This document shows, piece by piece, positions 11,362 through 60,935 of a stretch of DNA of 64,000 nucleotides; position 1 is the first letter of the stretch, and the number at the start of each line of letters is the position of its first letter. Source of the stretch: Gammaproteobacteria bacterium (GTDB lineage: Bacteria > Pseudomonadota > Gammaproteobacteria > CAJXQU01). Under the pieces are notes generated by a model. That model was not told the DNA's origin, did not search any database, and saw nothing but the letters and a program-made list of their open reading frames with translations. The position numbers were made by a program, and so were the translations under genes. The stretch lies in NCBI GenBank assembly GCA_965238175.1, contig CBDEGZ010000003.1:2304001-2368000 (forward strand). The letters are read 5' to 3'.

Positions 11362-11396
11362 TTTTTTTTTTAAAACTTTTGAGTTTACTTCAACAT

Positions 11397-11650
11397 TTAA
11401 CGGTCACTATGACCAAGTGATTTATCCGGTATAATTTGATCATGGCTCACTTACATAATTTCTTATGATGCTGGAAAGCGATCTTGTTCATTCACGTGCC
11501 AATAAAACTTCTCCATCCAAGCCTGATTTAAGAACAAGCTCTCCTGTCTCCCTTGCCAAATGTGATTGAAACCTCTTACGTTAACCAACTGGATCACAAA
11601 ATAAAATGACACTTTGAGCAATACTCTATCTCCACAAGTGATTTGAACAT
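11397..11650 (-). pseudogene. SelT/SelW/SelH (Rdx) family protein pseudogene
   Basis: Reads MFKSLVEIEYCSKCHFIL*SSWLT*EVSITF...DQIIPDKSLGHSDR*; CxxC and LGHSD terminus typical; several stops and frameshifts. Confidence 0.75.
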
Positions 11651-11722
11651 TACCTTTTTATCTTCATTAATAGATCTAATATAACGTGTAAATTTATAGG
11701 TAAACAATTTGATCAGTTTTCA

Positions 11723-11747
11723 AATCCCGACTAATATAGTCAGGATT
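11723..11747. promoter_or_regulatory. IscR/Rrf2 type-1-like palindromic operator
   Basis: AATCCCGACTAATATAGTCAGGATT matches the core of ATASYYGACTRwwwYAGTCRRSTAT, about 40 bp upstream of grxD. Confidence 0.65.
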
Positions 11748-11785
11748 AATCTGGGTTATCAGATCAAAACTAGACAGGATTTAAA

Positions 11786-12100
11786 ATGGATATTATAGAA
11801 AAAATCAAAGAAACCGTAGAAAGCACACCTATTGTATTATTTATGAAAGGCAATCCTCAGTTTCCACAATGTGGGTTTTCTGCAAAGACAGTCGAAGCAC
11901 TAAAAAGCTGTGAAGTAGAATTTTCATACGTAGATGTTTTAGAAGAACCTTCCGTTCGACAAAATCTACCAAAATATTCTGAGTGGCCTACATTCCCGCA
12001 ATTATTTGTTGGAGGAGAATTGGTCGGTGGTTGTGATATTGTGCTCGAATTGCATGAACAAGGTGAATTACAACAAATCACTAAGAATGCAATCTCTTAA
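11786..12100 (+). CDS. grxD: monothiol glutaredoxin Grx4
   Basis: LFMKG, CGFS, WPTFPQL, GGCD. Confidence 0.95.
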   Translation: MDIIEKIKETVESTPIVLFMKGNPQFPQCGFSAKTVEALKSCEVEFSYVDVLEEPSVRQNLPKYSEWPTFPQLFVGGELVGGCDIVLELHEQGELQQITKNAIS

Positions 12101-12186
12101 CAAAGATAATAGCTGATAGAGCTATCTGACCAAAAAACTTACGCTAACACAAGAAAGGTATGTAATTCAGTCTGGCAAAACTGTCA

Positions 12187-13542
12187 TCAGGCAGCCAGGG
12201 CTGAAATTGCACCTTTGACTGCCTCTGCTAATTCATTAGCCAGTTGTTTAACTTGTTTACCATCTTGACCTTCAACCATCACTCTTACCAGAGGTTCAGT
12301 CCCTGAAGGTCGAAGCAATACTCTACCCGTGTCACCCAGTTGAGCTTCAGTTTCCTGTACAGCAGCCTTAACCTCATCAATAGTCATAACATCAACCTGT
12401 TTACTCAAGCGGACATTAACTAGGGTTTGGGGATATTTGTTCATTCCTGATTTGAGGTTATTTAGTGTTTGGCCAGATCGTACCATTGCATCAAGAACTT
12501 GTAATGCTGAAACAACACCATCACCTGTTGTTGTCATATCCAGGCATATTAAATGTCCCGATGACTCACCACCTAACGTCCAATCGTTAACACGTAACAT
12601 TTCCATAATGTGCCGATCACCAACATTTGCTCGTTTAAAGTCTAAACCTAATGTTCGAATAGCATGCTCAAGACCGAGATTACTCATTAAAGTACCTACT
12701 ACAGCCCCATTCATACCTCGAGTTCGTTGCCGTTCACGAGCAATGATAAACAAGAGTTCATCACCATCTAAAACTTCTCCATGGTGATCAACCATTATTA
12801 ATCGATCGCCATCGCCATCAAGTGCAATTCCAAGATCAGCACCCTGTGCAAGTACAGCAGCTTGTAACGCATCTGGGCATGTAGCTCCGCAGTCGTCGTT
12901 AATATTCAAACCATTTGGAGAAACACCGATAGTAACAATATCAGCTCCTAGTTCTGCAAATACATCAGGGGCTATTTTATAGGTAGCACCATTTGCACAG
13001 TCGACAACTATTTTAAGGCCATTAAGATTAGCCCCTATGCCAAACGTACTTTTGCAAAATTCAATATAACGTCCTTCTGGATCTCTTACTCTATGCGCTT
13101 TACCAAGCTCTTTTGAAGGTGCAACTTTCATTGGTCGTTCAATCATAGACTCAATAGCTAACTCAATATCGTCGGCCAATTTCCGACCATCTCCCGAAAA
13201 AAATTTAATACCATTATCTTGATACGGATTATGAGAGGCGCTAATAACAATGCCAGCTTGAGCACGGAAAGTTCTAGTGAGGTAAGCTACACCAGGCGTT
13301 GGCATAGGTCCAAGGAGCATACTATCCACACCAGCGGCAGATAAACCAGCTTCTAATGCTGATTCGAACATATAACCGGAAATACGCGTATCTTTTCCAA
13401 TCAAGACACGACTATTACCCTGTTCAGCAAGTACTTGTCCGGCAGCCCAGCCAAGTTTCATTACAAAATCCGGACTTATCGGTGACGTACCCACTTCGCC
13501 ACGTATGCCATCAGTTCCGAAATATTTCCTGTTATTTGTCAT
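12187..13542 (-). CDS. glmM: phosphoglucosamine mutase
   Basis: [38 protein letters not shown]. Confidence 0.96.
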
Positions 13543-47355: not shown

Positions 47356-47440
47356 GCGTGGATTTTACAATATAATCTGTTCTTATATCGACAATCAGTA
47401 ACATTAGTATCGATAAAGTCGTTAGATCACTTGACCTTAG

Positions 47441-48918: not shown

Positions 48919-51084
48919 ATGATAAATCTGATTAAAGTGCCTTTGCGATGGCTCTTCACTCTTCTCTTTAAAGTAAAAGTAGAAGACGTAGAGAATTATC
49001 ATGCTGCAGGCGATCGTGTTTTGATCGTAGCTAATCACACCTCGCTAATGGACGTTGCTCTGCTTTACCTATTTCTCCCTGATCAAGCCACTTATGCAGT
49101 GAATACGCATATTCATAAAAAATGGTATTTCAAACCTTTTTTCTTATTTTCTGATGTTTTTGTACTCGATCCACTTAACCCACACTCTTTAAAATCTCTG
49201 ATTAAATTTTTAAAACAAAAAAATAAGGCAGTTATATTTCCAGAGGGCAGGATCACAACAACGGGTACCTTAATGAAGGTCTATGATGGCACTGGAATGG
49301 TTGCGGCTCACTCAGAAGCAATGGTTCTCCCAATTGGGATTGCTGGGGCAGAGCATTCAAAATATTCCTATATGAAGGGACGCTATAAACTTTCTTGGCT
49401 GCCCAGAATTACTATGAAGTTCCATCCGCCCATGCGCATCATTGCACCTGATAAAACTGATCCTTCTGATACTCGACCAAGTACAACTCAACAGATGACA
49501 GATCTAATGCTTGATGTGGTTGCTTTCAATAACATTGATTCAGATCGAACCCTATTCATAGCCCTGCTCGATGCAATGCGAATGAATAGCGGCAGTATGC
49601 AAATTGCCGAAGATATCAATCGTGAGCCCATTACCTATCGACAATTGGTTACACGTAGTTTTGTCCTCGGAAAAATAATCGCTTCCGAAACATCCACTGG
49701 AGAAAGTATTGGCGTTTTACTTCCTAATACCGTTGGAAACCTTGTCACCTTAATGAGCTTGCAATGCTACGGTCGAGTACCAGCCATGCTGAATTTTACC
49801 GCTGGTCCGCAAGGTTTGATCACCGCTTGTGAGACAGCTTCGGTCAACGTTGTTTATAGCTCAAGAGCTTTCGTCGAAAAAGGTGGACTAGAAAGTAGTA
49901 TTGAAGCTTTGGAAAAAGTCGTCAAAGTGATCTACCTGGAAGATTTACGTAATCAAATAACAACTGTTGATAAACTAAAAGGCTTCGCTAAAAGCTATTT
50001 TCCTTATATGGCTCACAAAAAAATAGCTGATCAAATCCGTTGTGATGATCGCGCAGTCATACTTTTTACTTCAGGTTCAGAAGGTGTCCCCAAAGGGGTG
50101 ATCTTATCTCATAAAAACATCATCTCAAACTATGCTCAAGCACATACTTATATCGGTCTAAATAAAACAGACTTAGTGCTTAATTGCTTACCGATGTTTC
50201 ATTCCTTTGGTTTCACAGGTGGAACCATTTTACCTTTGTTTGATGGTGCAAAAATCTTCTTCTACCCCACTCCACTGCATTATCGAGTTATTCCCGAACT
50301 CTGTTACCAACTCAATGCAACAGTGATTTTTGGAACCAACACCTTCCTCGCCGGATACGCAAAAAACGCACACCCAGCAGATCTACAATCTTTACGCTAT
50401 GTTGTCGCAGGAGCTGAAAAGTTACAGGATGATACCCGTACACTCTGGAACGAAAAATTTGGTATTCGTATCCTCGAAGGTTATGGAGCTACAGAGTGCA
50501 GCCCAGTTGTTGCGGTCAATACGCCTCTTTACACGAAAATGAACACGGTAGGGCGTTTAGTGTCAGGAATGGATTACTACCTTGAACCTGTAGAAGGTTT
50601 AGAGGTTGGTGGACGACTTTTTGTTTCTGGTCCAAATATTATGAGCGGATATTTGTTTCATAATGGCGATGGTGAGGTTGTTCCACCTCAAACAGATCGT
50701 GGGGTTGGCTGGTATGACACTGGTGACATTGTCACAATCGATGAACAAAAATATATTACGATACAAGGGCGTGCAAAACGTTTCGCTAAAATTGGTGGTG
50801 AGATGGTTTCATTAACACGCGTGGAAGATCTTGCTAATGCAACCTGGCCGAATAAACTTCATGCAGCGACTGTTGTTCCTGACAGCAAAAAAGGTGAGCA
50901 GATAGTGCTGATCACTGAGCATGAAGGCGCCGTTCGAAAAGATCTGACAAAACAAGCGAAACAAGATGGATTATCTGAGCTCGCTGTGCCCAAAAAAGTA
51001 ATGGTTGTAAAAGCAGTTCCTATTCTGGGAACTGGAAAGGTAGATTATCCAGGTGTTGCCGATCTAGTTAAAGACGCAACTTAA
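48919..51084 (+). CDS. aas: acyl-GPE acyltransferase / acyl-ACP synthetase
   Basis: NHTSLMD, FPEGRIT, FTSGSEGVPKG, GYGATE, WYDTGD, RFAKIGGEMVSL. Confidence 0.9.
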   Translation: MINLIKVPLRWLFTLLFKVKVEDVENYHAAGDRVLIVANHTSLMDVALLYLFLPDQATYAVNTHIHKKWYFKPFFLFSDVFVLDPLNPHSLKSLIKFLKQKNKAVIFPEGRITTTGTLMKVYDGTGMVAAHSEAMVLPIGIAGAEHSKYSYMKGRYKLSWLPRITMKFHPPMRIIAPDKTDPSDTRPSTTQQMTDLMLDVVAFNNIDSDRTLFIALLDAMRMNSGSMQIAEDINREPITYRQLVTRSFVLGKIIASETSTGESIGVLLPNTVGNLVTLMSLQCYGRVPAMLNFTAGPQGLITACETASVNVVYSSRAFVEKGGLESSIEALEKVVKVIYLEDLRNQITTVDKLKGFAKSYFPYMAHKKIADQIRCDDRAVILFTSGSEGVPKGVILSHKNIISNYAQAHTYIGLNKTDLVLNCLPMFHSFGFTGGTILPLFDGAKIFFYPTPLHYRVIPELCYQLNATVIFGTNTFLAGYAKNAHPADLQSLRYVVAGAEKLQDDTRTLWNEKFGIRILEGYGATECSPVVAVNTPLYTKMNTVGRLVSGMDYYLEPVEGLEVGGRLFVSGPNIMSGYLFHNGDGEVVPPQTDRGVGWYDTGDIVTIDEQKYITIQGRAKRFAKIGGEMVSLTRVEDLANATWPNKLHAATVVPDSKKGEQIVLITEHEGAVRKDLTKQAKQDGLSELAVPKKVMVVKAVPILGTGKVDYPGVADLVKDAT

Positions 51085-51369
51085 TAGATCACTTAACCTA
51101 CATAAATGCACCACAGGTAGTAGTTTCACCTATGAAAGTAAATAAACTAATACCCGTTTCCCTTTTAAAATAGACTGGCTTTTTATGCGATAGATTTGGT
51201 GTGTTTTAGTTAACTTTTAATTAGGAATGATTACAGAACATGTCTCTTAAGCATATAATATTTAGAGAGATAAAATTGGTTGAGTCTCACTTTTCGTTTA
51301 TTTCAGAATGTTTTTATGCCCCATTTATGGGGTATATTTCTAGTTAGGACTCACAGCAGGTAAGTCGAT

Positions 51370-51573
51370 ATGGAAGCAAAGCTCAAACATCTCGAAATGA
51401 TCCAAGCTGTTATAAACCGAATGGCTGGAAATTCGTTTCTACTAAAGGGTTGGAGCGTTACATTGGTATCTGCATTGTTCGCTCTTGCTGCAAAAGATAC
51501 GAACTATTTTTTCATTTACCTTACATATTTTCCATCGCTATCGCTCGCACCCCATAGCATAGGCGTTATGTAA
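51370..51573 (+). pseudogene. truncated cassette ORF, membrane protein family KHLEMIQxVINRMAxNSF
   Basis: N-terminal half only; reads directly into a half attC (TCGCTCGCACCCCATAGCATAGGCGTTATGT), implying a deletion. Confidence 0.65.
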
Positions 51574-51577
51574 AAAC

Positions 51578-51969
51578 ATGAAAACTATCTACTGTATAAA
51601 AACTGATGGAATCAACGGGTACATAGAAGGTGTTAATAATCAAATTATCTCTTCCAATCCATCATACCATGAAAAATTTGGCTTGATAGGTTCAGACAAA
51701 TGGATAACCTTATATGAGGCTGGGAAAATTTCAAAAGATGTGAGGGCTGGAAGAATTTCATATATTGGTAAAGATAGATATGAACCCGACTGTGAACCAG
51801 ATGTAATTGAAATTGAAACTGACAGACGAACAATTTCCTACCCTAATGAAAAGGTTATTGGTTATCCGATGCAGTATCATTAGATCAATGGGTGAGTATT
51901 GAGTCTGTTAAAGTAAAGCTTCCAGAAGTAACATCGATTATTGATGTCAAAGTTGTACTATTGGCATAA
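51578..51969 (+). pseudogene. frameshifted cassette ORF, hypothetical protein
   Basis: Alternative frame after about 51850 (GYWLSDAVSLDQWV...VVLLA*) stops at 51969, 2 nt before attC R''. Confidence 0.6.
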
Positions 51970-51971
51970 GT

Positions 51972-52032
51972 ACATAACGAGTTGCTTCATCAGAACCTCG
52001 CTTCGCTCGTTCTGCTTAGCAAGGCGTTATGG
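51972..52032 (+). repeat. attC site (61 bp)
   Basis: ACATAAC-gagTTGCT-tcatCAGAAC-ctcgcttcgctc-GTTCTG-cttAGCAA-ggc-GTTATGG imperfect hairpin. Confidence 0.88.
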
Positions 52033-52042
52033 GTAAAAATGT

Positions 52043-52393
52043 ATGAACAGAGTATGGCGAGAAATAGCGGATCCCACAAAGCACTCTGATTTCATGAGTA
52101 CCACCAATGAAGGCGGTATCCCCATAGAAAAGAGCAGAGACAACTTAATTCAAAAGTGGGTATATTTGGCTGACGTTTGCAATTTTACTTTTCAATTCGC
52201 AAACATTGATCAAGTAAAGGAAGCAAAAGCTTACTTTGAAACAAAAGTTCACCCATCAACGCGGGGAGACCATCCGCCATTTGAACATTACTGGCATCCT
52301 TGGTATTGCAAATTACCCAGGGGAATCAATAAAGGGGCAAAGCGTCAAAAGGTACTAAAGGCGCTTAACAGTATATTAAATCAATGGGCATAA
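52043..52393 (+). CDS. cassette hypothetical protein (116 aa)
   Basis: Bracketed by TTATGGGTAA / TTACCCATAA complementary boxes; distant similarity to 56942-57346. Confidence 0.75.
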   Translation: MNRVWREIADPTKHSDFMSTTNEGGIPIEKSRDNLIQKWVYLADVCNFTFQFANIDQVKEAKAYFETKVHPSTRGDHPPFEHYWHPWYCKLPRGINKGAKRQKVLKALNSILNQWA

Positions 52394-52518
52394 TTACCCA
52401 TAAAAGGAAACATCGTTTCATTACTACTATTCTATTGGATACAGCTACTTTTTTTCTAGCTATAAAAAACATTAAATTACTAAAATACATTTTGGGTAAC
52501 TCTTAGGCTAGAAATGCA

Positions 52519-52734
52519 ATGCTGGCTTATGCTGTTTTAAACGTGGTTTTAATTCTATTCTTAGTATTTTTCATTCCAGAGAATAATGCTCTTGTAATGT
52601 GGATTGCTTTAATGCTTATGGCGCTGTTAGCTGCCATGTACTTTTATTTCTTTAAAAGCCAACGCGGTAAAGATGTTTTCAATAATTTTTATGGAAAAGC
52701 TAACAAAGCAATGTTACTAAAAGTCAAAGACTAG
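52519..52734 (+). CDS. small 2-TM membrane protein, probable cassette remnant
   Basis: Hydrophobic; 3' end reads through AGCTAACAAAGCA (R''-like; 'ANK' read-through is typical of cassette ORFs). Confidence 0.45.
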   Translation: MLAYAVLNVVLILFLVFFIPENNALVMWIALMLMALLAAMYFYFFKSQRGKDVFNNFYGKANKAMLLKVKD

Positions 52735-52895
52735 GCTACCGCCCACAAATAAGTAGGTACAGGCCTTTCAAAATCGTATTACTCATTCAGTAATCAAGCA
52801 ACTCCAATATGAAACATTGGGCTTATACTCAAGAATTATAGGAGTCCAGTAAAATCAACCTTACAAATCTCACACATGAACAAACTTATTTCTGA

Positions 52896-53831
52896 TCAGT
52901 TTCTCTTTTTACGACGTGTTTTCTTGTTTTCTTTTTCTAGGCGCTTAGCCGCTTTTTTAGCACGTATAATTTCAAGTTCAGCCAATTCTTTTTTCATATC
53001 GGTAGGCAATTCAAGACTAATATTGCCCAGTTCACCGGTTCTAAATTCGATCAAAAATAATCTCGAAACTTTTTCCAGATCAACACTTCCTCCAGAACGT
53101 AAGCAGCCTCGTTTTGATCCAATTAATTCTAGTAATTCAAGTTCCGTTCCAGGCACAGAATCAAGTTTATATCGCACAGCAAGAAGTTCTGGATAGTTTT
53201 TGATCAAATATTCTGCCAGAAAAAAAGCCACGGCTGGATAATCCATTGCCGTGTCTCGAACAGCACCCGTAGCGGCTAAGCGAAAACCACTATTTTTATT
53301 TTCAACATTCGGCCATAAAATGCCCGGCGTATCCAATAATAGAAAATCTTCTTCTAATTTGATCCGTTGTTGTCCTTTTGTAACCGCCGGTTCATTGCCG
53401 GTTTTTGCAATAGTTCGTCCAGCCAGTTTATTGATCAATGTTGATTTTCCGGCATTCGGTATTCCAACAATCATCGCTGTTATTCGGCGATTATTATTGT
53501 CGATTTTATCTCTAATTTTTTCGCGGATTATACTCGGTAATTTTTTTATTGTTTCAGGTTTTTTAGTCGTGATTGGAATCGCTGCTTCGGTATTTTTTTG
53601 TTGATCAAAATACACTATCCACTGTTTTGTGATTTCACTATCGGCAAGATCGATTTTGCTCAAAATTTTAATGCATGGCTTATCACCACGTAGATCGGCA
53701 AGCATTGGGTTTTCGCTACTAAAAGGAATTCGCGAATCAAGGATCTCTATGATCAAATCAACCTTAGGTAAGGATTCTTTGATCTCTTTTTTGGCCTTGT
53801 ACATATGGCCGGGATACCACTGGATTTGCAT
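52896..53831 (-). CDS. rbgA: ribosome biogenesis GTPase RbgA/YlqF
   Basis: IQWYPGHM, DSRIPFSSENP, GIPNAGKSTLIN, DTPGILWP (circularly permuted GTPase). Confidence 0.93.
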   Translation of the reverse strand: MQIQWYPGHMYKAKKEIKESLPKVDLIIEILDSRIPFSSENPMLADLRGDKPCIKILSKIDLADSEITKQWIVYFDQQKNTEAAIPITTKKPETIKKLPSIIREKIRDKIDNNNRRITAMIVGIPNAGKSTLINKLAGRTIAKTGNEPAVTKGQQRIKLEEDFLLLDTPGILWPNVENKNSGFRLAATGAVRDTAMDYPAVAFFLAEYLIKNYPELLAVRYKLDSVPGTELELLELIGSKRGCLRSGGSVDLEKVSRLFLIEFRTGELGNISLELPTDMKKELAELEIIRAKKAAKRLEKENKKTRRKKRN

Positions 53832-53913
53832 TAGCTTTCTAGATTCATATGAAAACCAAAGAGAGTATCAGGAATTAATGATTTAACCAGCAGATTAAAC
53901 CTAATTAACCTGA

Positions 53914-54380
53914 TGTGATGGTCCCCTCCCCCTTTCCAGCATCTCGGTGCCATGATTGAGCTTTACAAACAATCAACTGGGAGAAGGCCACCATGATGAT
54001 TACAACAATTGGATTAGACATAGCAAAAAACGTATTTCATATTGTTTGCTATAATAAACAAGGGTGATTAATCAGCAAGAAAATACTAAAGCGAGCATAC
54101 GTCTTGTCATTTTTCCAATCACAACCAGCTTGCCTGGTGACAATAGAACCCTACGCAATTTTGCAGTATTGGGCCCGCGCGATACAACACCATGGACATC
54201 AAGTGAAGCTGCTACCTCCCAACATGTCCACGCGTATTGATAACAAGAATGATTATAACGATGCCCTGGCCATCGCCGTTGCCGCGAACCACCAAGTATA
54301 GGGCTGATAGTTCCGAGTGCGTATTTCAATGAAGTGGGGAATGAGGCACATGATCGTAACGGACGTAATATATCTGCGTT
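53914..54380 (+). mobile_element. IS110-family (IS1111 group) remnant with internal deletion
   Basis: From ATG 53993: MMITTIGLDIAKNVFHIV..*..YWARAIQHHGHQVKLLPP..NKNDYNDALAI (DEDD RuvC-like domain); in-frame TGA; C-terminal domain missing. Confidence 0.82.
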
Positions 54381-54550
54381 ATTTTTATTATGTATTTTCT
54401 TCTTTGAGATCCATTAGATCTTTTTCAGTAACCCAGTCAGCGGTTTCAGATATGACCTCTTAACTAGCCAAGTAAATATATTTTTATATTTGGCTTTGGT
54501 TGAGAGGCATTCGGCCTCTCGTTTATCTGATCAAGTTAGATGGAAGCTTA

Positions 54551-54613
54551 TTACAGCTTTTTGCACTTCTCCATTGCTGATTCAAGTTTCTTTATATCTT
54601 CGATAATACTCAT
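54551..54613 (-). pseudogene. 20-codon mini-cassette ORF (MSIIEDIKKLESAMEKCKKL)
   Basis: Lies between R' GTTAGAT (54626-32) and a matching ATCTAAC (54535-41); probably internally deleted. Confidence 0.4.
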
Positions 54614-54625
54614 ATCTATCCGCGT

Positions 54626-54730
54626 ATCTAACATCCAGCTCACTGAGCAAATTTTTGATGGCGGCTTTTGTGTATGTTTCTGCGCAAAAGGTGACAGTGG
54701 AAGTTTGTCTGATGCAGCCGTTAGTTATGT
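54626..54730 (-). repeat. attC site (105 bp)
   Basis: Minus strand ACATAAC...CTTTTGCGCAG...CACAAAAG...GTTAGAT immediately after the stop of 54734-55120. Confidence 0.85.
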
Positions 54731-54733
54731 GTT

Positions 54734-55120
54734 TTAGTCTCCAAAGAATAGCACGGCTTTATTGCTCTCTTTGGCTTCTAAAACTATGGCTTTGAACTTG
54801 CTTAAGAAATTAGTAAATTCAGATTTTGACACCGTTTTGTATATTTCTTTTTTTTCGGGTTTAATTTGTGTGCCTACATGCTCTTTCCATATGTCGGTTT
54901 TCTTTTGAACTCTATCACCGACTTCACGCACCAATCTTTCTAAGTGCGCTAATTCATAAGGTTTAAAAATTGCGTAATCATATAATGTAACAAGTTTACC
55001 CGTTACTTTATGAAGCTTTTCGAATTCAGGACTGATAACCCAAAAGTAAACTTCTGGATCAAAGGCGAGCCTTACATGCATTGTTTCAAAGTCATCACCA
55101 ATTCCTATTGTAAGAGACAT
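54734..55120 (-). CDS. cassette hypothetical protein (128 aa, immunity-protein-like)
   Basis: Flanked by GTTATGT and ACATAAC; ends VLFFGD. Confidence 0.75.
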   Translation of the reverse strand: MSLTIGIGDDFETMHVRLAFDPEVYFWVISPEFEKLHKVTGKLVTLYDYAIFKPYELAHLERLVREVGDRVQKKTDIWKEHVGTQIKPEKKEIYKTVSKSEFTNFLSKFKAIVLEAKESNKAVLFFGD

Positions 55121-55133
55121 AACCGATTCCTAT

Positions 55134-55259
55134 ACATAACGCCTTGCCAAGATGTGCGTAACGCAGTTCCCAAGCTTCTGAAATTCACCTTGTTCACTAA
55201 GCTCACCGCAAACCCAAAATGCTACGCGTTGTGCATCACTCTTAAGCAACTTTTTAGCA
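55134..55259 (-). repeat. long VCR/VXR-like attC site (126 bp), R'' mutated to TGCTAAA
   Basis: AAGAGTGATGCACAACGCGTAGCATTTT...TGCGTTACGCACATCTTGGCAAGGCGTTATGT. Confidence 0.85.
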
Positions 55260-55264
55260 GAATT

Positions 55265-55666
55265 TTACTTCTTATGCTTGTTGTATAAAGAGTCTATCGA
55301 ATAATTAAATAGCTCTTTAATATGTTGTTTGGCTTCTGGAATTGAAACTAAATCAAAGCTTACTGAAACCGAGTTACGGCCAAAGATATTTAAGAAACCT
55401 GGTTTAATAACGATCTCTAAATCTAACAACCCAGCATCCTTTTCTACAGGTATGAATTGATAGCTAGCGAATTTGCTATTGTAGTCACCTAACACAAAGA
55501 GTAAACCGCCGCCTTCATCAAGTTCTTCGAACAGCTCAAGTTCTTTAACCCAAGGATAATTATCAATTATTTCACAAGCTTCACGATGAAGATTGATATC
55601 CCGCTGATGATCAACAAGTTCAGTTCCACCTTCCCGATGTTGATAATGTGCTTTAATTAGATTCAC
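55265..55666 (-). CDS. cassette hypothetical protein (133 aa)
   Basis: Begins after GTTAGCAGAAT with GAGGA RBS; ends before the complementary ATTCTGCTAAA. Confidence 0.75.
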   Translation of the reverse strand: MNLIKAHYQHREGGTELVDHQRDINLHREACEIIDNYPWVKELELFEELDEGGGLLFVLGDYNSKFASYQFIPVEKDAGLLDLEIVIKPGFLNIFGRNSVSVSFDLVSIPEAKQHIKELFNYSIDSLYNKHKK

Positions 55667-55682
55667 TAAACTTTCCTCATTC

Positions 55683-55752
55683 TGCTAACGTCTGCCACAA
55701 CGAGTAACTGGAACGCAGCGTAAGTTAATCCAATTGCTGGCGCTTGTTATGT
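55683..55752 (-). repeat. attC site (70 bp)
   Basis: Minus strand ACATAACAAGCGCCAGCAATTGGATTAACTTACGCTGCGTTCCAGTTACTCGTTGTGGCAGACGTTAGCA. Confidence 0.88.
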
Positions 55753-55785
55753 GTACTATCCGACTTCATAGTCCTCTCAATGCTA

Positions 55786-55914
55786 TCAATTTATCAGTTC
55801 TGACGCTGGTATATAATCCCTGCAAATTTCTCGGTACCTACTATTCTTGTTCTGAATAGAAATTTCATATGAATACCAATCCTCTGGATTTTTTGTAATG
55901 GAGTCATAAGAAAC
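55786..55914 (-). pseudogene. 3' fragment of a deleted cassette gene
   Basis: VSYDSITKNPEDWYSYEISIQNKNSRYREICRDYIPASELIN* fused directly behind a lone R'' box (55917-55923). Confidence 0.45.
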
Positions 55915-55926
55915 TTGTTATGTGTT

Positions 55927-56223
55927 TTACTCATAGAATTTTCCAGCATGTAATATATGGGCTGCTCTTTTCCATGGGTTTGTAGGTTTCTCATAAAACT
56001 CAAGTCCACTAACTGAAGCCTGGCCCCACGCCAACGCTGCATCAAGATATGATACAATATCACCATTTTCCCAGCCATTAACTCCTGGGCTGTAAGGCGA
56101 ACTGGGATTTACTTTTTCTTTTTTTTCTTCATCGTTACGATCTTCCATTAGTGCTTCTACAAAATTCAGGAAGTCTTGCTCTGTTTCTACGTTATCAGCT
56201 AGTTGGTATAGATCTTTATTCAT
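55927..56223 (-). CDS. cassette protein with WEN...PW..AAxILxAGKxYE motif (DUF7660-like, putative immunity protein)
   Basis: GWENGDIVSYLDAALAW...NPWKRAAHILHAGKFYE; AGGA RBS. Confidence 0.75.
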   Translation of the reverse strand: MNKDLYQLADNVETEQDFLNFVEALMEDRNDEEKKEKVNPSSPYSPGVNGWENGDIVSYLDAALAWGQASVSGLEFYEKPTNPWKRAAHILHAGKFYE

Positions 56224-56239
56224 GTTTTCCTACGTAGAT

Positions 56240-56296
56240 ACATAATGCCGCAATTAATAGCAAGCGTAGCGCATCCATTACATTATTTTGTTATAT
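56240..56296 (-). repeat. attC site (57 bp), R' mutated to ATTATGT
   Basis: Minus strand ATATAAC...GCGCTACGC...ATTATGT after the stop of 56307-56825. Confidence 0.72.
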
Positions 56297-56306
56297 TTTC
56301 ACTTAA

Positions 56307-56825
56307 TTAATAATTGATAAAAACAAGATCCTTATTTCTATCAGAAGTTATTTTGAAAATATAACTTATTTCATCTATATAATTAGTTTCTGCTGCATAA
56401 TCAGGAGCGTTTTTTAGAAAAAAATCTTTAGCTTCTTCTAATTGATTAAATTTAATACTATAAATATCAGGCCAATCATTTGAAGCGGGGATTGGGATGA
56501 ATGCTTTAAAATTCCCATCCGTTACTTCTGATAAGTATGATAAAAACTCTTCTCGTTCGATCTGCTCTCCAAAATCCCTACACATCATTTCATAGATATA
56601 ACCATAAATATAATGATGTGTTTCATCTCTTGTTATCGCGCCATTAATGATATCAGCTAGACAATCGCGATACACTTGGGGTTCTATTTCAAACCAATTT
56701 GCTCCTTCCTCAATATCACCCTTATGCTTAGCCATAAAATCATCTAAAAACTCTGTATTTTTACTTCCCCAAAGTTCTGCTATTTTTGAGGCATCTACTT
56801 GAAAAGCCATAGTGTTATAACTCAT
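56307..56825 (-). CDS. cassette acidic protein (172 aa; DUF7691-like, putative immunity protein)
   Basis: MSYNTMAFQVD...GSK...YGYIYEMMCRDFG...PIPASNDWP...KDLVFINY. Confidence 0.72.
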   Translation of the reverse strand: MSYNTMAFQVDASKIAELWGSKNTEFLDDFMAKHKGDIEEGANWFEIEPQVYRDCLADIINGAITRDETHHYIYGYIYEMMCRDFGEQIEREEFLSYLSEVTDGNFKAFIPIPASNDWPDIYSIKFNQLEEAKDFFLKNAPDYAAETNYIDEISYIFKITSDRNKDLVFINY

Positions 56826-56865
56826 AAATCTTTCTCAACCTCATTATTTATTCAATGCGACTAAA

Positions 56866-56936
56866 ACATAATGCTGCGCTTTGTGGCTGTTGTGGAACGC
56901 AGCGAAACAACAATCCGAAACAGCACTTTGTTAGCA
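56866..56936 (-). repeat. attC site (71 bp), R' mutated to ATTATGT
   Basis: Minus strand TGCTAACAAAGTGCTGTTTCGGATTGTTGTTTCGCTGCGTTCCACAACAGCCACAAAGCGCAGCATTATGT. Confidence 0.85.
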
Positions 56937-56941
56937 GTGAA

Positions 56942-57346
56942 TTACGGGTAAAGTAACTTCAAGTTACATAAGCCGCCTTCAATTGTTTTAATATACTTTT
57001 CTCTCTTTGGCCATGGCTTAAGTTTGGCAGGTAGCCTACTTAACCAATGACGATTTGGGCCGTAAACCACCTGCCGTTTTTGAGTTAACTGTGTTGATGT
57101 AGGCATGTTCTTTTGACAAACGACATCAAGAAAATGCTCGACCTCTTCAACTGAGGCGAATTCAAGCTCAACTCCCAAAATATCAATAATAAGTCGAGGA
57201 AACCCCTTCGTTGGAATGACGCGAGGGAGAGCTGGTTCATATAGTGTTGCATGCGGCCAAGCGTCACCGTCCAAGTGTTTATGAACCCAGAAACTCAATG
57301 GACTAGGCCTGTACTCCTTAGTAAATTCAATTCTCCATTTCTTCAT
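56942..57346 (-). CDS. cassette hypothetical protein (134 aa from MKKWRIE)
   Basis: Starts just after R' GTTAGTA; the longer track start overlaps the attC. Confidence 0.75.
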   Translation of the reverse strand: MKKWRIEFTKEYRPSPLSFWVHKHLDGDAWPHATLYEPALPRVIPTKGFPRLIIDILGVELEFASVEEVEHFLDVVCQKNMPTSTQLTQKRQVVYGPNRHWLSRLPAKLKPWPKREKYIKTIEGGLCNLKLLYP

Positions 57347-57357
57347 GATGAGTGTAC

Positions 57358-57424
57358 TACTAACGACAGAGATCAAGGATTTCTGAGCGAAGCGAAGAAA
57401 TTCCTCTGCAGCTCATAGTTAGAC
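57358..57424 (-). repeat. attC site (67 bp)
   Basis: Minus strand GTCTAAC...GGAATTTCTTCGCTTCGCTCAGAAATCC...GTTAGTA. Confidence 0.87.
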
Positions 57425-57432
57425 TTTGTTTT

Positions 57433-57777
57433 TTACCAAGGATCTATTTCAAAGTTTCTCATCCAACGCTCATAACCATCGAGCATTTTTTTTGATTCCT
57501 GTGGATCTAAAATACCATTATTTTCAACACTACTTAACTCTCCCCAATATTGTATTGAAGAAAGTAAATACCAAATCATGTCTACTCCGCTATTATAGTC
57601 CTCTTGAGATAGAGACGGAAATTTCTTTTTAACGTGATCTGGGATAGTTTCTTTTGCTGTTATTTCTTCAAATAAATCACTAAGGAATAAGCCTTGTTTT
57701 GATAACCCTAAACCTTGTTTTATTACACCACCTTCATCTGATTTTGATAACCAAGATACTTTAGATATTTTTTCCAT
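57433..57777 (-). CDS. first cassette ORF of array B, hypothetical (114 aa)
   Basis: AGGTGAG RBS; stop 8 nt before the attC. Confidence 0.72.
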   Translation of the reverse strand: MEKISKVSWLSKSDEGGVIKQGLGLSKQGLFLSDLFEEITAKETIPDHVKKKFPSLSQEDYNSGVDMIWYLLSSIQYWGELSSVENNGILDPQESKKMLDGYERWMRNFEIDPW

Positions 57778-58257
57778 TGTCTCACCTGATGTTGAACAAT
57801 GTGCACATAGTGCTGATTTTACATGATAAGAAACATTAGTTAATTTCTTGTCATGTGTCTTTTTTTATGAGTAATCTTGTAATAGGGATAAAAGAGGTTA
57901 TTTACCACTTGGCATTAATATTTCCTTTTTTTATTTTAGTCTATCGCCGCAATAATTGAATAAATCCAAGCTCTGCATATTTATAATGCTCGCCTGTGGA
58001 ATTATCAATGACCCTAAAAACATTAAAAGACAATCAGTTAGATGAAAACACTGTGACTATTTTGTCCAACGGACTTCTTTTAGTGGCTATTAAAGTGGAG
58101 TTGCGTAGCAATAACAGGCTATTGGAAACAACTTCAACGCAAAGAGGCGCTAAAAGAAGTCTGCTGGATGGGTATTTCTTATCCCGAGTCAAGGTTATTT
58201 GATAGGCCAATAAATAAACTGATAACTAAAGCAAGAACGAACTACAATAGTTTCAGG

Positions 58258-58629
58258 TTATAAAACCTTTGGAATGTCTTCAGCTGCACGGGACGCATCC
58301 AATAGTACAAGGCCGAGTTTTGCATCAGGACGAGCGAGAACACATAAGACCGCCTCATTGCCTGCACCAACCATAATCACATAACCGAGACGTCCTTTTA
58401 CGATTACTTGATCAAGCTCACCACGTTTTAATTCTTTAGCTGTTCTCTCGCCAAGCACCAGCATTGCAGCCGCCATCGCACCAACCATTTCCTGTTCAAA
58501 ACTAGTTGGCAAGGCACTAGCAATCATCAACCCATCAATTGAGATCACAGCACAACCTTGAATATCGGTGGTGGAACCGTTTAGTTCGTTTAAGATTGAA
58601 ACAAGCATGTCTTCGCGCATGGAAAACAA
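58258..58629 (-). CDS. roadblock/LC7 (MglB-like) protein
   Basis: DIQGCAVISIDGLMIAS, VGAMAAAML, RGELDQVIVKG, LGLVLLD. Confidence 0.92.
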   Translation of the reverse strand: MFSMREDMLVSILNELNGSTTDIQGCAVISIDGLMIASALPTSFEQEMVGAMAAAMLVLGERTAKELKRGELDQVIVKGRLGYVIMVGAGNEAVLCVLARPDAKLGLVLLDASRAAEDIPKVL

Positions 58630-58759
58630 AACTCCAAATTACTATTCTGCGGACTATAGCGGCCACTTAAAAGAAATCTTCAACATATTGGTTGAAAAAA
58701 AGGACTGTATATTACAGTAGAGTAGACATTTGATCTGCTTTTGATCTGATTTTAGTGGG

Positions 58760-59794
58760 TTACAAGAAGGTACTCTCATTATGTTCAGACTCATCCATCA
58801 CTGGGTCCATTGAGTAGAATAATGATTGAAGTAACATCGACATGTCCTGATGGCTTGCCGGATTAACAGAAAAAATCGGTGCTTGCTGTAATTGCGGCAA
58901 CTCCAGTCGCCGAATATGCTTATGATAGTCTGATATTGCTGGGATTCTATATCGATCAATATGCGTGACACCTATCACGAGTTTTTTAGTATTTTCGAAT
59001 GAGATATTTGAAAAGAATATTTCCAAATCACGGAGTGGATCTTTACGTCGATTATCGATGAGCAAGATGATACCAAGCAGTTTATCTTGTAGTATGTCCA
59101 GTGCTGAATTAAGAGAATATTGTCTGTGAACTGAGTAGAAGCGCAGCTTTTCCGACTCTGAAAATTTTAAATTACTGTATTCCATTAGCATCAGATCACC
59201 ACTATCTTTTGTTGTCTCACTACCACATAAAGTCTTTAATGAAACCGTATTATCACTTGCGGCCGAGCCATAAATAATAATCTTTTGATCTTGATTTTCG
59301 AGATATTGTTTATCCTTTAATGACTGCCAAGATTGAGAAATATTTTCTGATTCAATCCGTTGGCCAGTGAACAAAGCATTTTCTTCAAACGTGGTTTTAA
59401 TCGTTTCCAGATATTTAGTAGTGGTTTGCGCTTCGGTGTATTCTGCAACCATATATCCAGTTCCATTTATGGAAAAACAGCGCATTACTTTTACACCTCT
59501 ATCACTTTGTGGCGGAAGTTTGGCAATTTGTTTAACTTCATCTAAGAACTTACTTAGGTTAATGACATATTGATCAGCTTTGTGTGGCTCTCTGACAGAT
59601 ACAGAAAAATCCGTTTCTCTCATTGCTAAGACATCAGGGAAAAATTCTTTAATGATCACTTGCCGTTCGATATTCAAATCCAGAGCCAGGTAAAAATATG
59701 AGTTACCTGAATAAGCAAGAAATTTCTCAATTTGGTATTCACTAAGCAAATATCCGACAGGTAACGAATTTATATCTTCTTGATCAGTCATCAA
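58760..59794 (-). CDS. fusion of a degenerate Ser/Thr kinase N-lobe and a degenerate MglA-like small GTPase
   Basis: LPVGYLLSEYQIEKFL..YLALD...VIIKEFFP...NGTGYMVAEY; then KIIIYG..., LGIILLIDNRRKDPLRDL, VIGVTHID, PIFSVN; catalytic motifs absent. Confidence 0.75.
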   Translation of the reverse strand: MMTDQEDINSLPVGYLLSEYQIEKFLAYSGNSYFYLALDLNIERQVIIKEFFPDVLAMRETDFSVSVREPHKADQYVINLSKFLDEVKQIAKLPPQSDRGVKVMRCFSINGTGYMVAEYTEAQTTTKYLETIKTTFEENALFTGQRIESENISQSWQSLKDKQYLENQDQKIIIYGSAASDNTVSLKTLCGSETTKDSGDLMLMEYSNLKFSESEKLRFYSVHRQYSLNSALDILQDKLLGIILLIDNRRKDPLRDLEIFFSNISFENTKKLVIGVTHIDRYRIPAISDYHKHIRRLELPQLQQAPIFSVNPASHQDMSMLLQSLFYSMDPVMDESEHNESTFL

Positions 59795-60935
59795 GATTTT
59801 GTCCTTTTAAATGTTTCAGTATCCGTAAATAAAACTCTCTTTGATTTTTTTCTGATTTTATAAAAGGTTTCTCACCCGATTGTATTTGTGTCGGTTTAAC
59901 CGCTTCCGTGTCTTGTCGCACCAATCCTAACGTTGATGCGGCGGTATAAAAATTAAAGACATCTTTCTGTGGAATATTTAAAACATCAATGGTCTCCATC
60001 AACGTCATCGGACAAGATACCCATAAGGCTGCAATGCGCATTACATTTGGGATAGGAGATAAACGCGGTAGATCTGGCCATGAGGTTAAAATAATTTTCT
60101 TATCAATATCGGTACCTGCAGGAACAGAACCTTCATAGGTCCAAAGTGCCAGATCCCATAGAAAAGAATCTATGTCGACAGGTTTCAGCCGTGTTTCTTG
60201 CCACTCGTCCAAATATTTTGAAAACTCTCTTTCTGTAAATACACGTTTCACTACATCAGATTCGTTCAAAAAATGTTTACAAATGTCTTGCAAACCTGCA
60301 GGAGTGAAATCGGTATTGATCCAATGTTCAGCAGGATCTATAAAAATACTTCCTTGATTTGTAAACTGTAATCTTATTCCTCGTCCCTCTGAATTTGCCT
60401 CGACCACGGCTCGTTTCACTTCGTCTATAAGATAACCCTGTTCAGAAAAAAATCTGACAACTTGACCTTGCTCTTCTATAGGCTGAGAAGGTTCAACCTT
60501 CTTTGTTTTCGGTGGTTCCGTTTTGGGGTACTTAATATGTGTCGAAAGAAATTGGTTCCAGGATGATTGTCTTTTTTGATCAACCCCATGTTTTTTCCGT
60601 GCAATACTTAGCGTAAGAACCAGATCATCAATAGAAATTGGTTTTTTCAGATAAAAATGCGCTGGGCTTCGGCTTCGGCTTCGGCTTCGTTGGGTTTCAT
60701 TAACTGAGAGAAAAATAGCTCTTTGATCAGGCTTGCCTTGTAACAAGGCATTCCATTCGTCTTCTGCACCATAATTATCTAGATCAACAACTGATAATGA
60801 TGCCTGGTCAAAATTTGCAATAGCATAATATCCAGGAGGTTCTTTAGCTAAAACCATTTCAATCGCATTACGATTTCGCTGATCTATTCCAATCAAATTG
60901 ATCAATATGGTCTCATTATCACCTGATGATGCCAT
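59784..60935 (-). CDS. receiver-like / winged-helix hypothetical protein of roadblock-GTPase operons
   Basis: Receiver-like N-terminus (VVDLD...YLKKPIS); FLWDLALWT..G..P, LTSWPDLPRL, RIAALW, VFNFYTAASTLGL. Confidence 0.7.
   Translation of the reverse strand: MASSGDNETILINLIGIDQRNRNAIEMVLAKEPPGYYAIANFDQASLSVVDLDNYGAEDEWNALLQGKPDQRAIFLSVNETQRSRSRSRSPAHFYLKKPISIDDLVLTLSIARKKHGVDQKRQSSWNQFLSTHIKYPKTEPPKTKKVEPSQPIEEQGQVVRFFSEQGYLIDEVKRAVVEANSEGRGIRLQFTNQGSIFIDPAEHWINTDFTPAGLQDICKHFLNESDVVKRVFTEREFSKYLDEWQETRLKPVDIDSFLWDLALWTYEGSVPAGTDIDKKIILTSWPDLPRLSPIPNVMRIAALWVSCPMTLMETIDVLNIPQKDVFNFYTAASTLGLVRQDTEAVKPTQIQSGEKPFIKSEKNQREFYLRILKHLKGQNLDD
60665..60688. repeat. (GGCTTC)x4 in-frame tandem repeat encoding RSRSRSRS
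   Basis: Seen directly. Confidence 0.85.

Follow-up and report, generated by a model that had tools for sequence, protein, structure and literature searches.

In a 64,000-nucleotide stretch of a gammaproteobacterial genome (GenBank contig CBDEGZ010000003.1, positions 2,304,001 to 2,368,000; hereafter the window), two groups of small open reading frames (ORFs) lie on either side of the housekeeping gene rbgA. We interpret them as two separate, partly eroded arrays of integron cassettes without a nearby integrase, of the type known as CALINs (groups of attC sites that lack an integron integrase), which were probably seeded in trans and then decayed. To this reading as a whole we assign a probability of roughly 0.6. 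Array A runs on the + strand from 51343 to about 52843, and array B runs on the - strand from about 58225 down to 54724. They count as two CALINs and not one because they lie on opposite strands. The units have the anatomy of cassettes, many of their recombination sites are eroded, their content differs from that of the closest relative, and the ORFs scanned hold no recombinase. By our by-eye calls, array A contributes the site A2, the degenerate site A3 and the half-site A1, and array B contributes the sites B0-B5 and two half-sites. As far as such calls go, the locus would therefore have two or more same-strand attC sites within 4 kb of each other and no integrase among the window ORFs scanned, which is how a CALIN is recognized.

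An earlier note on this DNA had proposed two convergent, integrase-less, CALIN-like arrays around rbgA together with a remnant of an insertion sequence (IS). That picture is borne out by the match between cassette ends and their own starts, by the best hits of a covariance model built from plasmid sites, by the content of the related locus and by the lack of a recombinase in the ORFs scanned. Its count of about 12 short ORFs comes close to ours, which is ten ORFs of at least 30 aa (four in array A and six in array B) plus fragments. The extent that it gave, 51343 to 57800, has the start of array A right and falls short for array B, which extends through the attC-like site B0 (58169-58064) to a junction at about 58225.

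Cassette boundaries

An attC site consists of an inverse core (RYYYAAC) and a core (GTTRRRY) around an imperfect palindrome of roughly 57-141 bp, and it lies 3' of a single ORF. The integron integrase IntI exchanges strands between G and TT of the core (written G/TT below, with the slash marking the crossover point), so that a cassette's inverse core is the complement of the bases with which that cassette opens. Eight full-length sites of 57-126 nt in the window have this format, with erosion. All three pairs of boxes quoted in the earlier note are present, namely GTTATGT (51565-51571) with ACATAAC (51972-51978) and TTATGGGTAA (52027-52036) with TTACCCATAA (52394-52403) on the + strand, and GTTAGCAGAAT (55689-55679) with ATTCTGCTAA (55262-55253) on the - strand.

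Boxes and complementarity were counted by eye on both strands, over 10 nt. In eight window cassettes the inverse core matches the start of its own cassette at 7, 10, 5, 7, 8, 8, 10 and 7 positions. For the six cassettes in which the start of the next cassette could also be scored, that start is matched at 5, 9, 5, 5, 6 and 4 positions. The own start is matched at least as well as the next in all six, and strictly better in five, which upholds the view that start/end complementarity is an integrase-type signature here. Complementarity is complete (10/10) in two cassettes, A-3 and B-5; in the latter, the same inverse core matches the start of the next cassette at only 4 of 10 positions. The corresponding figures for the attC site at the related locus, L001, are 9 to its own start and 5 to the next. 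We read the complementarity as the probable footprint of IntI recombination at G/TT, in which circular cassettes would have been inserted successively. The integron reading is favoured because repeats of the type found in repetitive extragenic palindromes (REPs) or terminators do not predict complementarity to the cassette's own start.

The sites also share sequence. The 9-mer GGCGTTATG has exactly three occurrences in the 64 kb, all of them at 3' ends of sites in the array region, and a central CGCTNCG motif is common to the sites in an alignment of six short ones. A MAFFT alignment of all eight sites put the 3' cores out of register and was set aside for that of the six short sites, which aligned better. 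The attC sites within one chromosomal array typically resemble each other.

Different cassettes at a shared breakpoint

Eighty loci were collected around rbgA, among which a single close relative, the metagenome-assembled genome (MAG) locus L001, was available for comparison. Its rbgA product is 93% identical to that of the window. Identity to the other 79 loci listed is 56-61%; these include Methylobacter, Crenothrix, Methyloglobulus and others, with labels mostly of Methylococcales or Methylococcaceae. From these identities to L001 and to mostly Methylococcales loci, the source organism would be a Methylococcales-like gammaproteobacterium.

Upstream of array A lies a conserved non-coding segment of 235 bp, here called the platform (51112-51342, + strand), that aligns with the reverse complement of L001 at about 12130-12400. 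The homology ends exactly after ...ATTTCTAGTTA, i.e. at ...ATTTCTAG/TTA, and the exact 21-mer at this platform end was found in 1 of 88 loci, L001 alone. The platform holds the best promoter-like match of the region, ATTACA-18-TATAAT (51230-51259), and a terminator-like hairpin (51315-51336) followed by TTTCTAG. It is joined by the first core site of array A, G/TTAGGA (51343-51349, + strand). This core has no inverse core upstream and is hence not part of an attC site; judged on its sequence, it would be an attI-like or a secondary site. The homologous point in L001 reads G/TTATGT. There the platform is followed by an ORF of 245 aa resembling PvuRts1I, an 81-nt attC site (ACATAAC...GTTATGG) and a membrane protein of 83 aa, whereas in the window the same breakpoint is followed by ORFs of 67, 101, 116 and 71 aa. 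Homology to L001 is regained at about 52843, some 40 bp 3' of the rbgA stop codon.

Just upstream of the platform (window 51085-51112; L001 12400-12472) synteny breaks: the window has aas at this place, and L001 has a galE-like epimerase gene and then cysC. The upstream neighbour has thus changed, with platform, array and rbgA remaining together.

Array B forms, with the IS fragment, a 4.3-kb segment (53897-58225) between a roadblock/LC7 gene and rbgA, and is co-directional with both. In L001, rbgA comes 93 bp after the roadblock gene; array B and the IS fragment (about 58225 to 53897) are absent, and the flanks can be aligned across the gap, with CTTG/ATCTG at the empty site. The two genes are adjacent and co-directional there, and their relative orientation is identical in the window. 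The segment thus appears to be a clean 4.3-kb indel and not an inverted one, and it would represent an insertion here rather than a loss in L001. The earlier note had suggested a sedentary integron broken by inversion; with rbgA and the roadblock gene oriented alike in both genomes and array B a clean indel, that idea finds no support. Outgroups were tried for the polarity of array B and were rejected. Methylobacter svalbardensis (L012) and L002 both carry another gene upstream of rbgA, an unannotated ORF of 199-203 aa on the opposite strand, so that the ancestral state of the roadblock-rbgA adjacency is not inferable from them.

Search for an integrase

Matches to the tyrosine recombinase family PF00589 were sought at E values of ≤0.01 and ≤1e-5. 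None was found in 58 of the 75 window ORFs of at least 90 aa (the 17 excluded overlap longer genes on another frame), nor in the 15 stop-to-stop frames of the unassigned stretches, in agreement with the earlier note's statement that the window has no tyrosine recombinase. None was found in L001 either, among 13 flanking ORFs and two cassette ORFs scanned by Pfam. The layout of a complete integron, with intI, attI and the cassette promoter Pc upstream of the array, did not occur in the ORFs scanned in the window or in L001. The window reaches 51 kb beyond the arrays on one side and about 6 kb on the other. The distance from the end of aas (51084, + strand), the upstream neighbour of array A, to the first core site is 258 bp, which is too short for an integrase gene.

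Covariance models and folding

In order to obtain an attC model independent of the window, the sites of aadA1, orfD and blaOXA-2 were read from plasmid R46, and model R2 was built from the first two. R2 was then used to collect the rows of R3, a covariance model of eight class 1 integron attC rows from plasmids (aadA1, aadB, aadA2, aac(6')-29a/b, blaVIM-2, aac(6')-Ib and one partial site), from which window sequence was excluded. The training set is of class 1 only: a tblastn search of plasmids with IntI1 was saturated by class 1 integrases, and other classes were not gained.

R3 was run over the whole window, on both strands and with filters off, and gave four matches at E ≤10, of which the best three are predicted sites on the predicted strand. 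These are A2 (51972-52032, +; 16.1 bits, E 0.18, exact ends), B3 (56240-56296, -; 15.3 bits, E 0.29, exact ends) and B1 (57359-57424, -; 12.5 bits, E 1.5, one end 1 nt short). With the search restricted to 51000-58400, the E values become 0.021 for A2, 0.033 for B3 and 0.17 for B1. The top match in L001 is the attC site of that locus, L001a. A true attC site that had been held out, that of blaOXA-2 in R46, scored 13.8 bits (E 0.55), and its second copy was not listed. R3 is thus insensitive, and the window scores are within the range of real but atypical sites. We take the R3 result as supportive and not conclusive. The fourth window match (47370-47427, +; 10.0 bits, E 6.2) is intergenic, before mltD, and is probably noise.

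The bottom strand of an attC site, once single-stranded, forms a hairpin with an R box, a spacer without pairing, an L box bearing extrahelical bases and a variable loop. Two predicted sites fold clearly better on the bottom strand than their shuffled sequences, with the cores and the R box paired. These are A2 (-13.7 kcal/mol, z -4.3) and B0 (-23.3 kcal/mol, z -5.2), for each of which 0 of 200 shuffles was as good.

A further model, R1, made from six sites of the locus itself, was rejected as overfitted: in the window it picked up only the five sites used to train it, and among the 80 loci only L001a, the sixth. At the remnant after cassette B-6 it gave 11.3 bits (E 9). Its result says only that the sites may be a repeat family private to this lineage. 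Rfam at gathering thresholds returned three tRNAs only for the window, and at E ≤10 it returned two chance-level matches for the array region, with zero attC-like families.

Arrangement of array A

The first unit of array A is the truncated cassette A-1 (51344-51565, +), which lacks its inverse core. Its ORF (51370-51573, 67 aa) consists of the first 57 aa of a 137-aa family joined to the 3' end of an attC site (GGCGTTATGT) with the core at 51565-51571. Cassette A-2 (51566-52026) carries an ORF of 101 aa (51578-51883) and the 61-nt site A2 (51972-52032, ACATAAC...GTTATGG). Cassette A-3 (52027-52495) carries an ORF of 116 aa (52043-52393) and the degenerate, attC-like site A3 (52394-52495, 102 nt), in which the inverse core ends in AAA and not AAC and the core reads ATTTTGG in place of a sequence starting with GTT. 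The last unit (52496-52843) has a membrane-like ORF of 71 aa (52519-52734), after which no recognizable attC site was found on reading the sequence.

Arrangement of array B and the IS fragment

The upstream neighbour of array B, the roadblock/LC7 gene, ends at 58258 (- strand). At the left end of the 4.3-kb segment (58170-58228, -), a three-way alignment places the junction at ...GCTTTAG/TTATCAG. All units of array B are on the - strand. It opens with the attC-like site B0 (58064-58169; ATCCAGC...GTTGGAC, 106 nt), whose 27-nt arms are 81% complementary. Cassette B-1 (57364-58069) carries an ORF of 114 aa (57777-57433) and site B1 (57424-57358, GTCTAAC...GTTAGTA). It is followed by cassette B-2 (56872-57363), with an ORF of 134 aa counted from ATG (57346-56942) and site B2 (56936-56866, TGCTAAC...ATTATGT), and by cassette B-3 (56246-56871), with an ORF of 172 aa (56825-56307) that belongs to DUF7691 and site B3 (56296-56240, ATATAAC...ATTATGT). 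In both B2 and B3 the crossover G is replaced by A. Cassette B-4a (55917-56245) has an ORF of 98 aa (56223-55927) of DUF7660 and the inverse core ACATAAC (55923-55917), beyond which its attC site is cut off. Next comes a cassette truncated at its 5' end (55683-55916, remnant 55916-55684), of which the tail of the lost gene and site B4 (55752-55683, ACATAAC...GTTAGCA) are left; both core triplets of B4 are intact. Cassette B-5 (55140-55688) carries an ORF of 133 aa (55666-55265) and the long site B5 (55259-55134, 126 nt, TGCTAAA...GTTATGT). Cassette B-6 (54724-55139) carries an ORF of 128 aa (55120-54734) and then the inverse core ACATAAC (54730-54724), all that is left of its attC site.

Between this last inverse core and the IS fragment lies a stretch (54302-54723) that contains a G+C-rich hairpin (54501-54521) and gave no Pfam match in the nine of its stop-to-stop frames that were scanned. 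The hairpin has 8 pairs and a run of T after it on the + strand, and an ORF of 20 codons adjoins it on the - strand. The rbgA-proximal end of the 4.3-kb insert is formed by a fragment of a DEDD transposase of the IS110 family (53993-54301, +, within the stretch 53897-54301), recognized from its translation and a match to PF01548. The fragment has about 100 codons with an in-frame TGA (54065-54067) and breaks off at about position 107 of the 155 in the profile. Reading the stop as X gives a match to PF01548 with an E value of 2.2e-6 and 28 bits, against a cut-off of 29. It is the N-terminal domain alone, without the C-terminal domain (PF02371), and the ends of the element were not identified. 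No match was found in a blastn search of the fragment against plasmids, and no second copy of the IS or of the array B block was seen in the 64-kb window.

Cassette genes

Two window cassette ORFs fall into recently defined Pfam families, B-3 (DUF7691; PF24740, 4.7e-18) and B-4a (DUF7660; PF24693, 3.5e-8). The seven window cassette ORFs lacking an earlier match had no Pfam match at E ≤1, and none of 13 cassette proteins matched NCBIfam. PADLOC gave one marginal match (E 0.0044) among nine window cassette ORFs, a PDB sequence search with the DUF7691 protein returned chance-level matches only, and in the Atlas the 133-aa ORF is near unnamed 'hypothetical protein' clusters only.

The 116-aa ORF of A-3 has 68 homologues; those listed are 56-89% identical, most of them full-length, and include proteins of Vibrio campbellii (81%), Alkalilimnicola, Thalassolituus, Thalassomonas and Microbulbifer. 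The 67-aa fragment of A-1 has 2138 longer homologues, the best 120 of which are mostly of 137 aa and 78-88% identical. It is 86% identical to a Vibrio cholerae protein in an alignment over residues 1-57, and the named sources among the best 120 include Vibrio, Agarivorans, Pseudanabaena, cyanobacteria, Cloacimonadota and Methylococcales. Such conservation across phyla is unusually high for so small a gene. The family is also found on 140 plasmid records, at lower identity. In its full-length form it matches PDC-M50A, a candidate defence family of PADLOC, at 2.6e-56. The first cassette of L001 (11380-12117, -) encodes a methyl-directed restriction nuclease like PvuRts1I (Pfam 1.2e-26; PADLOC mREase_II 1.5e-25) and is a candidate anti-phage cassette gene. 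The identities of cassette genes to their Vibrio homologues (81-86%) far exceed those of rbgA among the loci listed (56-61%), which argues for horizontal transfer and points to real, mobile cassette genes.

Origin of the arrays

The origin of CALINs is debated: they may be what is left of former integrons, or cassettes that an integrase inserted at a distance from the integron to which it belongs. For the present arrays we propose the second route. Each unit would consist of one small promoterless gene and an imperfect palindrome of the attC type, joined by a tyrosine recombinase of the IntI type at G/TT. The integrase would have worked in trans and come from an integron that lies at another place in the genome or has since disappeared. 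Array A would hang on a conserved chromosomal site that is not an attC site (...CTAG/TTA), at the platform end and 3' of rbgA. Loot et al. (bioRxiv 10.1101/2022.09.11.507474) showed that genomic GWT sites can receive cassettes through IntI and that promoters in the vicinity can then drive their expression. Each array is co-directional with its upstream host gene, which fits this picture, and expression, if any, would be by read-through from upstream host genes, for array A via aas or the platform promoter and for array B via the roadblock operon. Both upstream array junctions read TAG/TTA, while the downstream junction of array B is occupied by the IS fragment. Most sites now look unable to recombine, which would leave the cassettes largely fixed. 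Indeed, the arrays look largely frozen because of the mutated core triplets, the truncated cassettes (A-1 and the B4 cassette without its 5' part) and the weak hairpins.

Several results weigh against this proposal. The integrase is unaccounted for among the window ORFs scanned. The AAC and GTT triplets are both kept in only three of the eight window sites (A2, B1 and B4). B0, B2, B3 and B5 each have a mutation in one triplet and A3 has mutations in the two, the inverse-core triplet being affected in B5, A3 and B0. The gap between the R and L boxes is 2-3 nt in A2 and B5 versus 5-6 nt in the class 1 sites read. The matches of R3 in the window are individually weak (E 0.18-1.5), and the model missed five of the eight full-length sites (A3, B0, B2, B4 and B5); none of the six window matches of R2 is a candidate site, with five of eight presumed untrained class 1 attC instances recovered from control plasmids by the same model. 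The imperfect hairpins that the earlier note described prove uneven, and among the eight full-length sites only A2 and B0 fold clearly better than shuffles. For B1 (z -1.55), B5 (-13.9 kcal/mol, z -1.2) and the site of L001, the gain over shuffles on the bottom strand is marginal (z -1.2 to -1.6), and B2, B3 and B4 fold no better than shuffles on either strand, nor does A3 (z -0.67). In the minimum-energy folds the core ends are paired in B1, B2 and B4 and not in B5 (z -1.55 to +0.8 for these four), and B3 does not adopt an attC-type fold on the bottom strand. Furthermore, the assignment was made by eye and with a home-made model rather than with IntegronFinder. As for the trans route, GWT is nearly uninformative as a motif; array B opens with 55 bp and then B0, and not with a cassette start that matches B0; and the IS110-family fragment caps this array. 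There is one close relative only, so the difference at array A could be explained by differential loss from a larger ancestral array, and a deletion in L001 could account for the missing array B there. Insertion in trans at secondary sites, the other origin suggested in the earlier note, would fit the G/TT junctions; given the low information of GWT, the opening of array B, the IS cap and the possible loss from an ancestral array, we hold it with moderate confidence.

It is very improbable that the arrays have nothing to do with integrons and are ordinary small genes separated by lineage-specific palindromes, whether REPs, relatives of miniature inverted-repeat transposable elements or terminators, with coincidental complementarity. 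The hairpins that mostly fail to beat shuffles, the individually non-significant matches of R3, the lack of any from R2, the confinement of R1 to its own training sites and the lack of an integrase in the ORFs scanned would all sit well with such repeats. They do not predict that inverse cores match their own cassette starts better than adjacent sequence, twice at 10 of 10 positions, or that a model of plasmid class 1 sites has its three best matches on predicted sites, on the right strand and with ends exact or 1 nt short. The differing content at an identical G/TTA breakpoint in L001 and the gene homologues in Vibrio with 81-86% identity also speak against them. The earlier note had named weak attC-model scores, combined with ORF content that is identical and syntenic in relatives, as evidence against cassettes; the scores in our home-made model are indeed weak, and the ORF content is neither identical nor syntenic in L001.

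Two other histories keep the cassettes and change how they came to the locus. They could be the remnants of a complete sedentary integron whose intI and attI were lost or separated, including by an inversion around rbgA. The mutual likeness of the attC sites is that seen within sedentary integrons, an old element that is no longer active would be expected to show erosion and truncated cassettes, the locus contains an IS fragment and synteny is broken upstream of the platform (aas versus the galE-like epimerase gene); intI loss and rearrangement are among the origins of CALINs given by Cury et al. (PMC4889954). We nevertheless consider this history distinctly unlikely. PF00589 left no trace in the long ORFs scanned (58 of 75) or in 15 small frames, an integrase gene would not fit into the 258 bp that separate aas from the first core, rbgA is not inverted and array B is a clean indel, and array A starts at a non-attC site that both species have kept. 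Somewhat less unlikely, though still doubtful, is that array B arrived ready-made, as part of a larger array situated at another place, either in an event in which the IS110-family element took part or by homologous or illegitimate recombination. In favour of this, the first features of the segment are a short stretch without ORFs and a complete attC site, B0, in place of a cassette start, and the IS fragment at its other end adjoins the host flank directly; ISKpn4 and ISPst6, of the IS1111 family, target one end of attC (PMC11187229), and Cury et al. (PMC4889954) report IS elements in a quarter of integrons. Yet the left junction, TAG/TTA, resembles that of array A and fits an IntI crossover equally, the IS is truncated so that its original target and ends are not reconstructable, and neither a second copy in the window nor a plasmid match to the IS fragment was seen.

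Within the reading that we prefer, seeding in trans followed by decay, a more specific version can be put forward only tentatively and is, in our judgement, rather unlikely. The platform would be a stand-alone docking site without an integrase of its own, having evolved into either an attI-like site or an attG hotspot, serviced in trans and reused since the two species diverged, and across Methylococcales cassettes may have settled repeatedly in the 3' flank of rbgA. There are hints of the latter, and three cases are too few to claim it.

Cassettes at other rbgA loci

Over the 80 rbgA loci, R3 gave three further matches, all of them convincing single cassettes on inspection. Those of L020 and L055 are oriented convergently with rbgA, on its 3' side and at distances of 0.15-1.2 kb. 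In L020, a Methylobacter MAG, the cassette (11067-11957, -) is about 150 bp 3' of the rbgA stop codon and converges on rbgA as array A does; it has an ORF of 266 aa, the start G/TTATAC and the attC site GCATAAC...GTTGAGC (22.6 bits). In L055, a Methyloglobulus MAG, the cassette (11978-12750, -) has an ORF of 160 aa, the start G/TTAAAC and a 48-nt attC site (26.4 bits) whose inverse core, GTTTAAC, matches its own start at 6 of 6 positions; it is flanked on both sides by a unit of about 125 bp beginning with TTATCC. In L034 (5702-6792, +), the attC site AGCTAAC...GTTAGCA (27.1 bits) overlaps the end of an ORF of 358 aa that is RelA/SpoT-like by eye, and the neighbouring ORFs of 529 and 207 aa are transposase-like by eye. 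The core of this site is nearly identical to that of L055, and the two may represent the typical Methylococcales attC type.

TAG/TTA occurs at three upstream array boundaries, CTAG/TTAGGA (51341-51346) and TTAG/TTATCAG (58228-58223, -) in the window and CTAG/TTAAAC (about 12590-12600) in L055. It may be a preferred crossover context or a coincidence.

Host setting

The window is a run of housekeeping genes, including nqr, hrpA, ftsH, carAB, cysS, ilvD, dapD, mltD, aas and metH, with a G+C content of 0.35-0.44 for the most part. The gene rbgA (52896-53831, -), which encodes a ribosome-biogenesis GTPase of the YlqF type (Pfam MMR_HSR1, 8.7e-17), is a host gene outside both arrays. G+C content was considered as a diagnostic for the arrays and discarded: at 0.35-0.39 they are barely under the 0.38-0.43 that is typical of the window. 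At 58258-60935 (-), the Roadblock/LC7 gene comes after two conserved genes (344 and 383 aa) without a significant Pfam match, and the trio also occurs in L001. It may be an MglB-like regulatory module.

In annotating this genome, one should treat the ten small ORFs around rbgA as horizontally acquired cassettes and not as core genes. Moreover, the locus offers a small natural test case of CALIN origin, with a conserved non-attC breakpoint that has differing content and an array that is cleanly present or absent. There is a small chance that it will prove a useful natural example of attG-type cassette spread, and a reused docking site, if true, would be natural comparative evidence for a genomic route of cassette spread that has been proposed from experiments. 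The candidate anti-phage genes, i.e. the truncated member of PDC-M50A and the PvuRts1I-like nuclease of L001, fit the idea of cassette arrays as stores of defence genes.

Comparison with known systems

Some insertion sequences are associated with attC sites: some IS1111-family elements target them, the IS1111-attC group (PMC11187229, citing Tetu and Holmes 2008 and Post and Hall 2009). The present locus is similar in that a DEDD/IS110-family fragment lies at the end of an array whose last attC site is incomplete. It differs in that about 100 codons are left, just under the Pfam cut-off, and these do not tell which subgroup (IS110 or IS1111) the element belongs to, what its target was or where it ended.

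Sedentary chromosomal integrons, such as the arrays of Vibrio cholerae repeats (VCRs) in Vibrio, share with the locus mutually similar attC sites, small genes that are defence-like or unassigned, and a chromosomal position. Unlike them, the arrays here are short and have no recognized intI, attI or Pc. Methylococcales, already known to carry integrons, are one of 11 taxa given an attC model of their own by Ghaly et al. 2021 (PMC8352920). The attC family of the window is not the one of roughly 48 nt seen in L034 and L055, two other loci related to Methylococcales.

The attG insertions described by Loot et al., which yield single attC sites lacking integron-integrases (SALINs) or small CALINs, resemble the arrays in that cassettes lie outside an integron, downstream of and co-directional with host genes, with G/TT junctions. 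The empty array B site of L001, G/AT, fits GWT. The resemblance is limited at this site by the right-hand CRGM, matched at 2 of 4 positions by eye, and by the little information in GWT. In addition, the arrays here hold multiple cassettes, one site has different content in two species, and an integrase is not known for this genome.

The closest likeness is to CALINs, which Cury et al. 2016 (PMC4889954) define as at least two attC sites without a nearby intI, 95% of them being without an intI pseudogene. As in CALINs, two or more attC-type sites share a strand with under 4 kb between them, the cassette ORFs of an array have one orientation, and no intI or intI pseudogene was recognized nearby in the ORFs scanned. 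The arrays are likewise small, with about three and about seven sites, and their cassettes are of unassigned function and not resistance genes. They differ in that several sites are eroded, maybe past acceptance by IntegronFinder, and in that two opposed arrays stand within 2 kb around a housekeeping gene. The kind of element is thus already known and fairly common, and the locus around rbgA adds another example of it.

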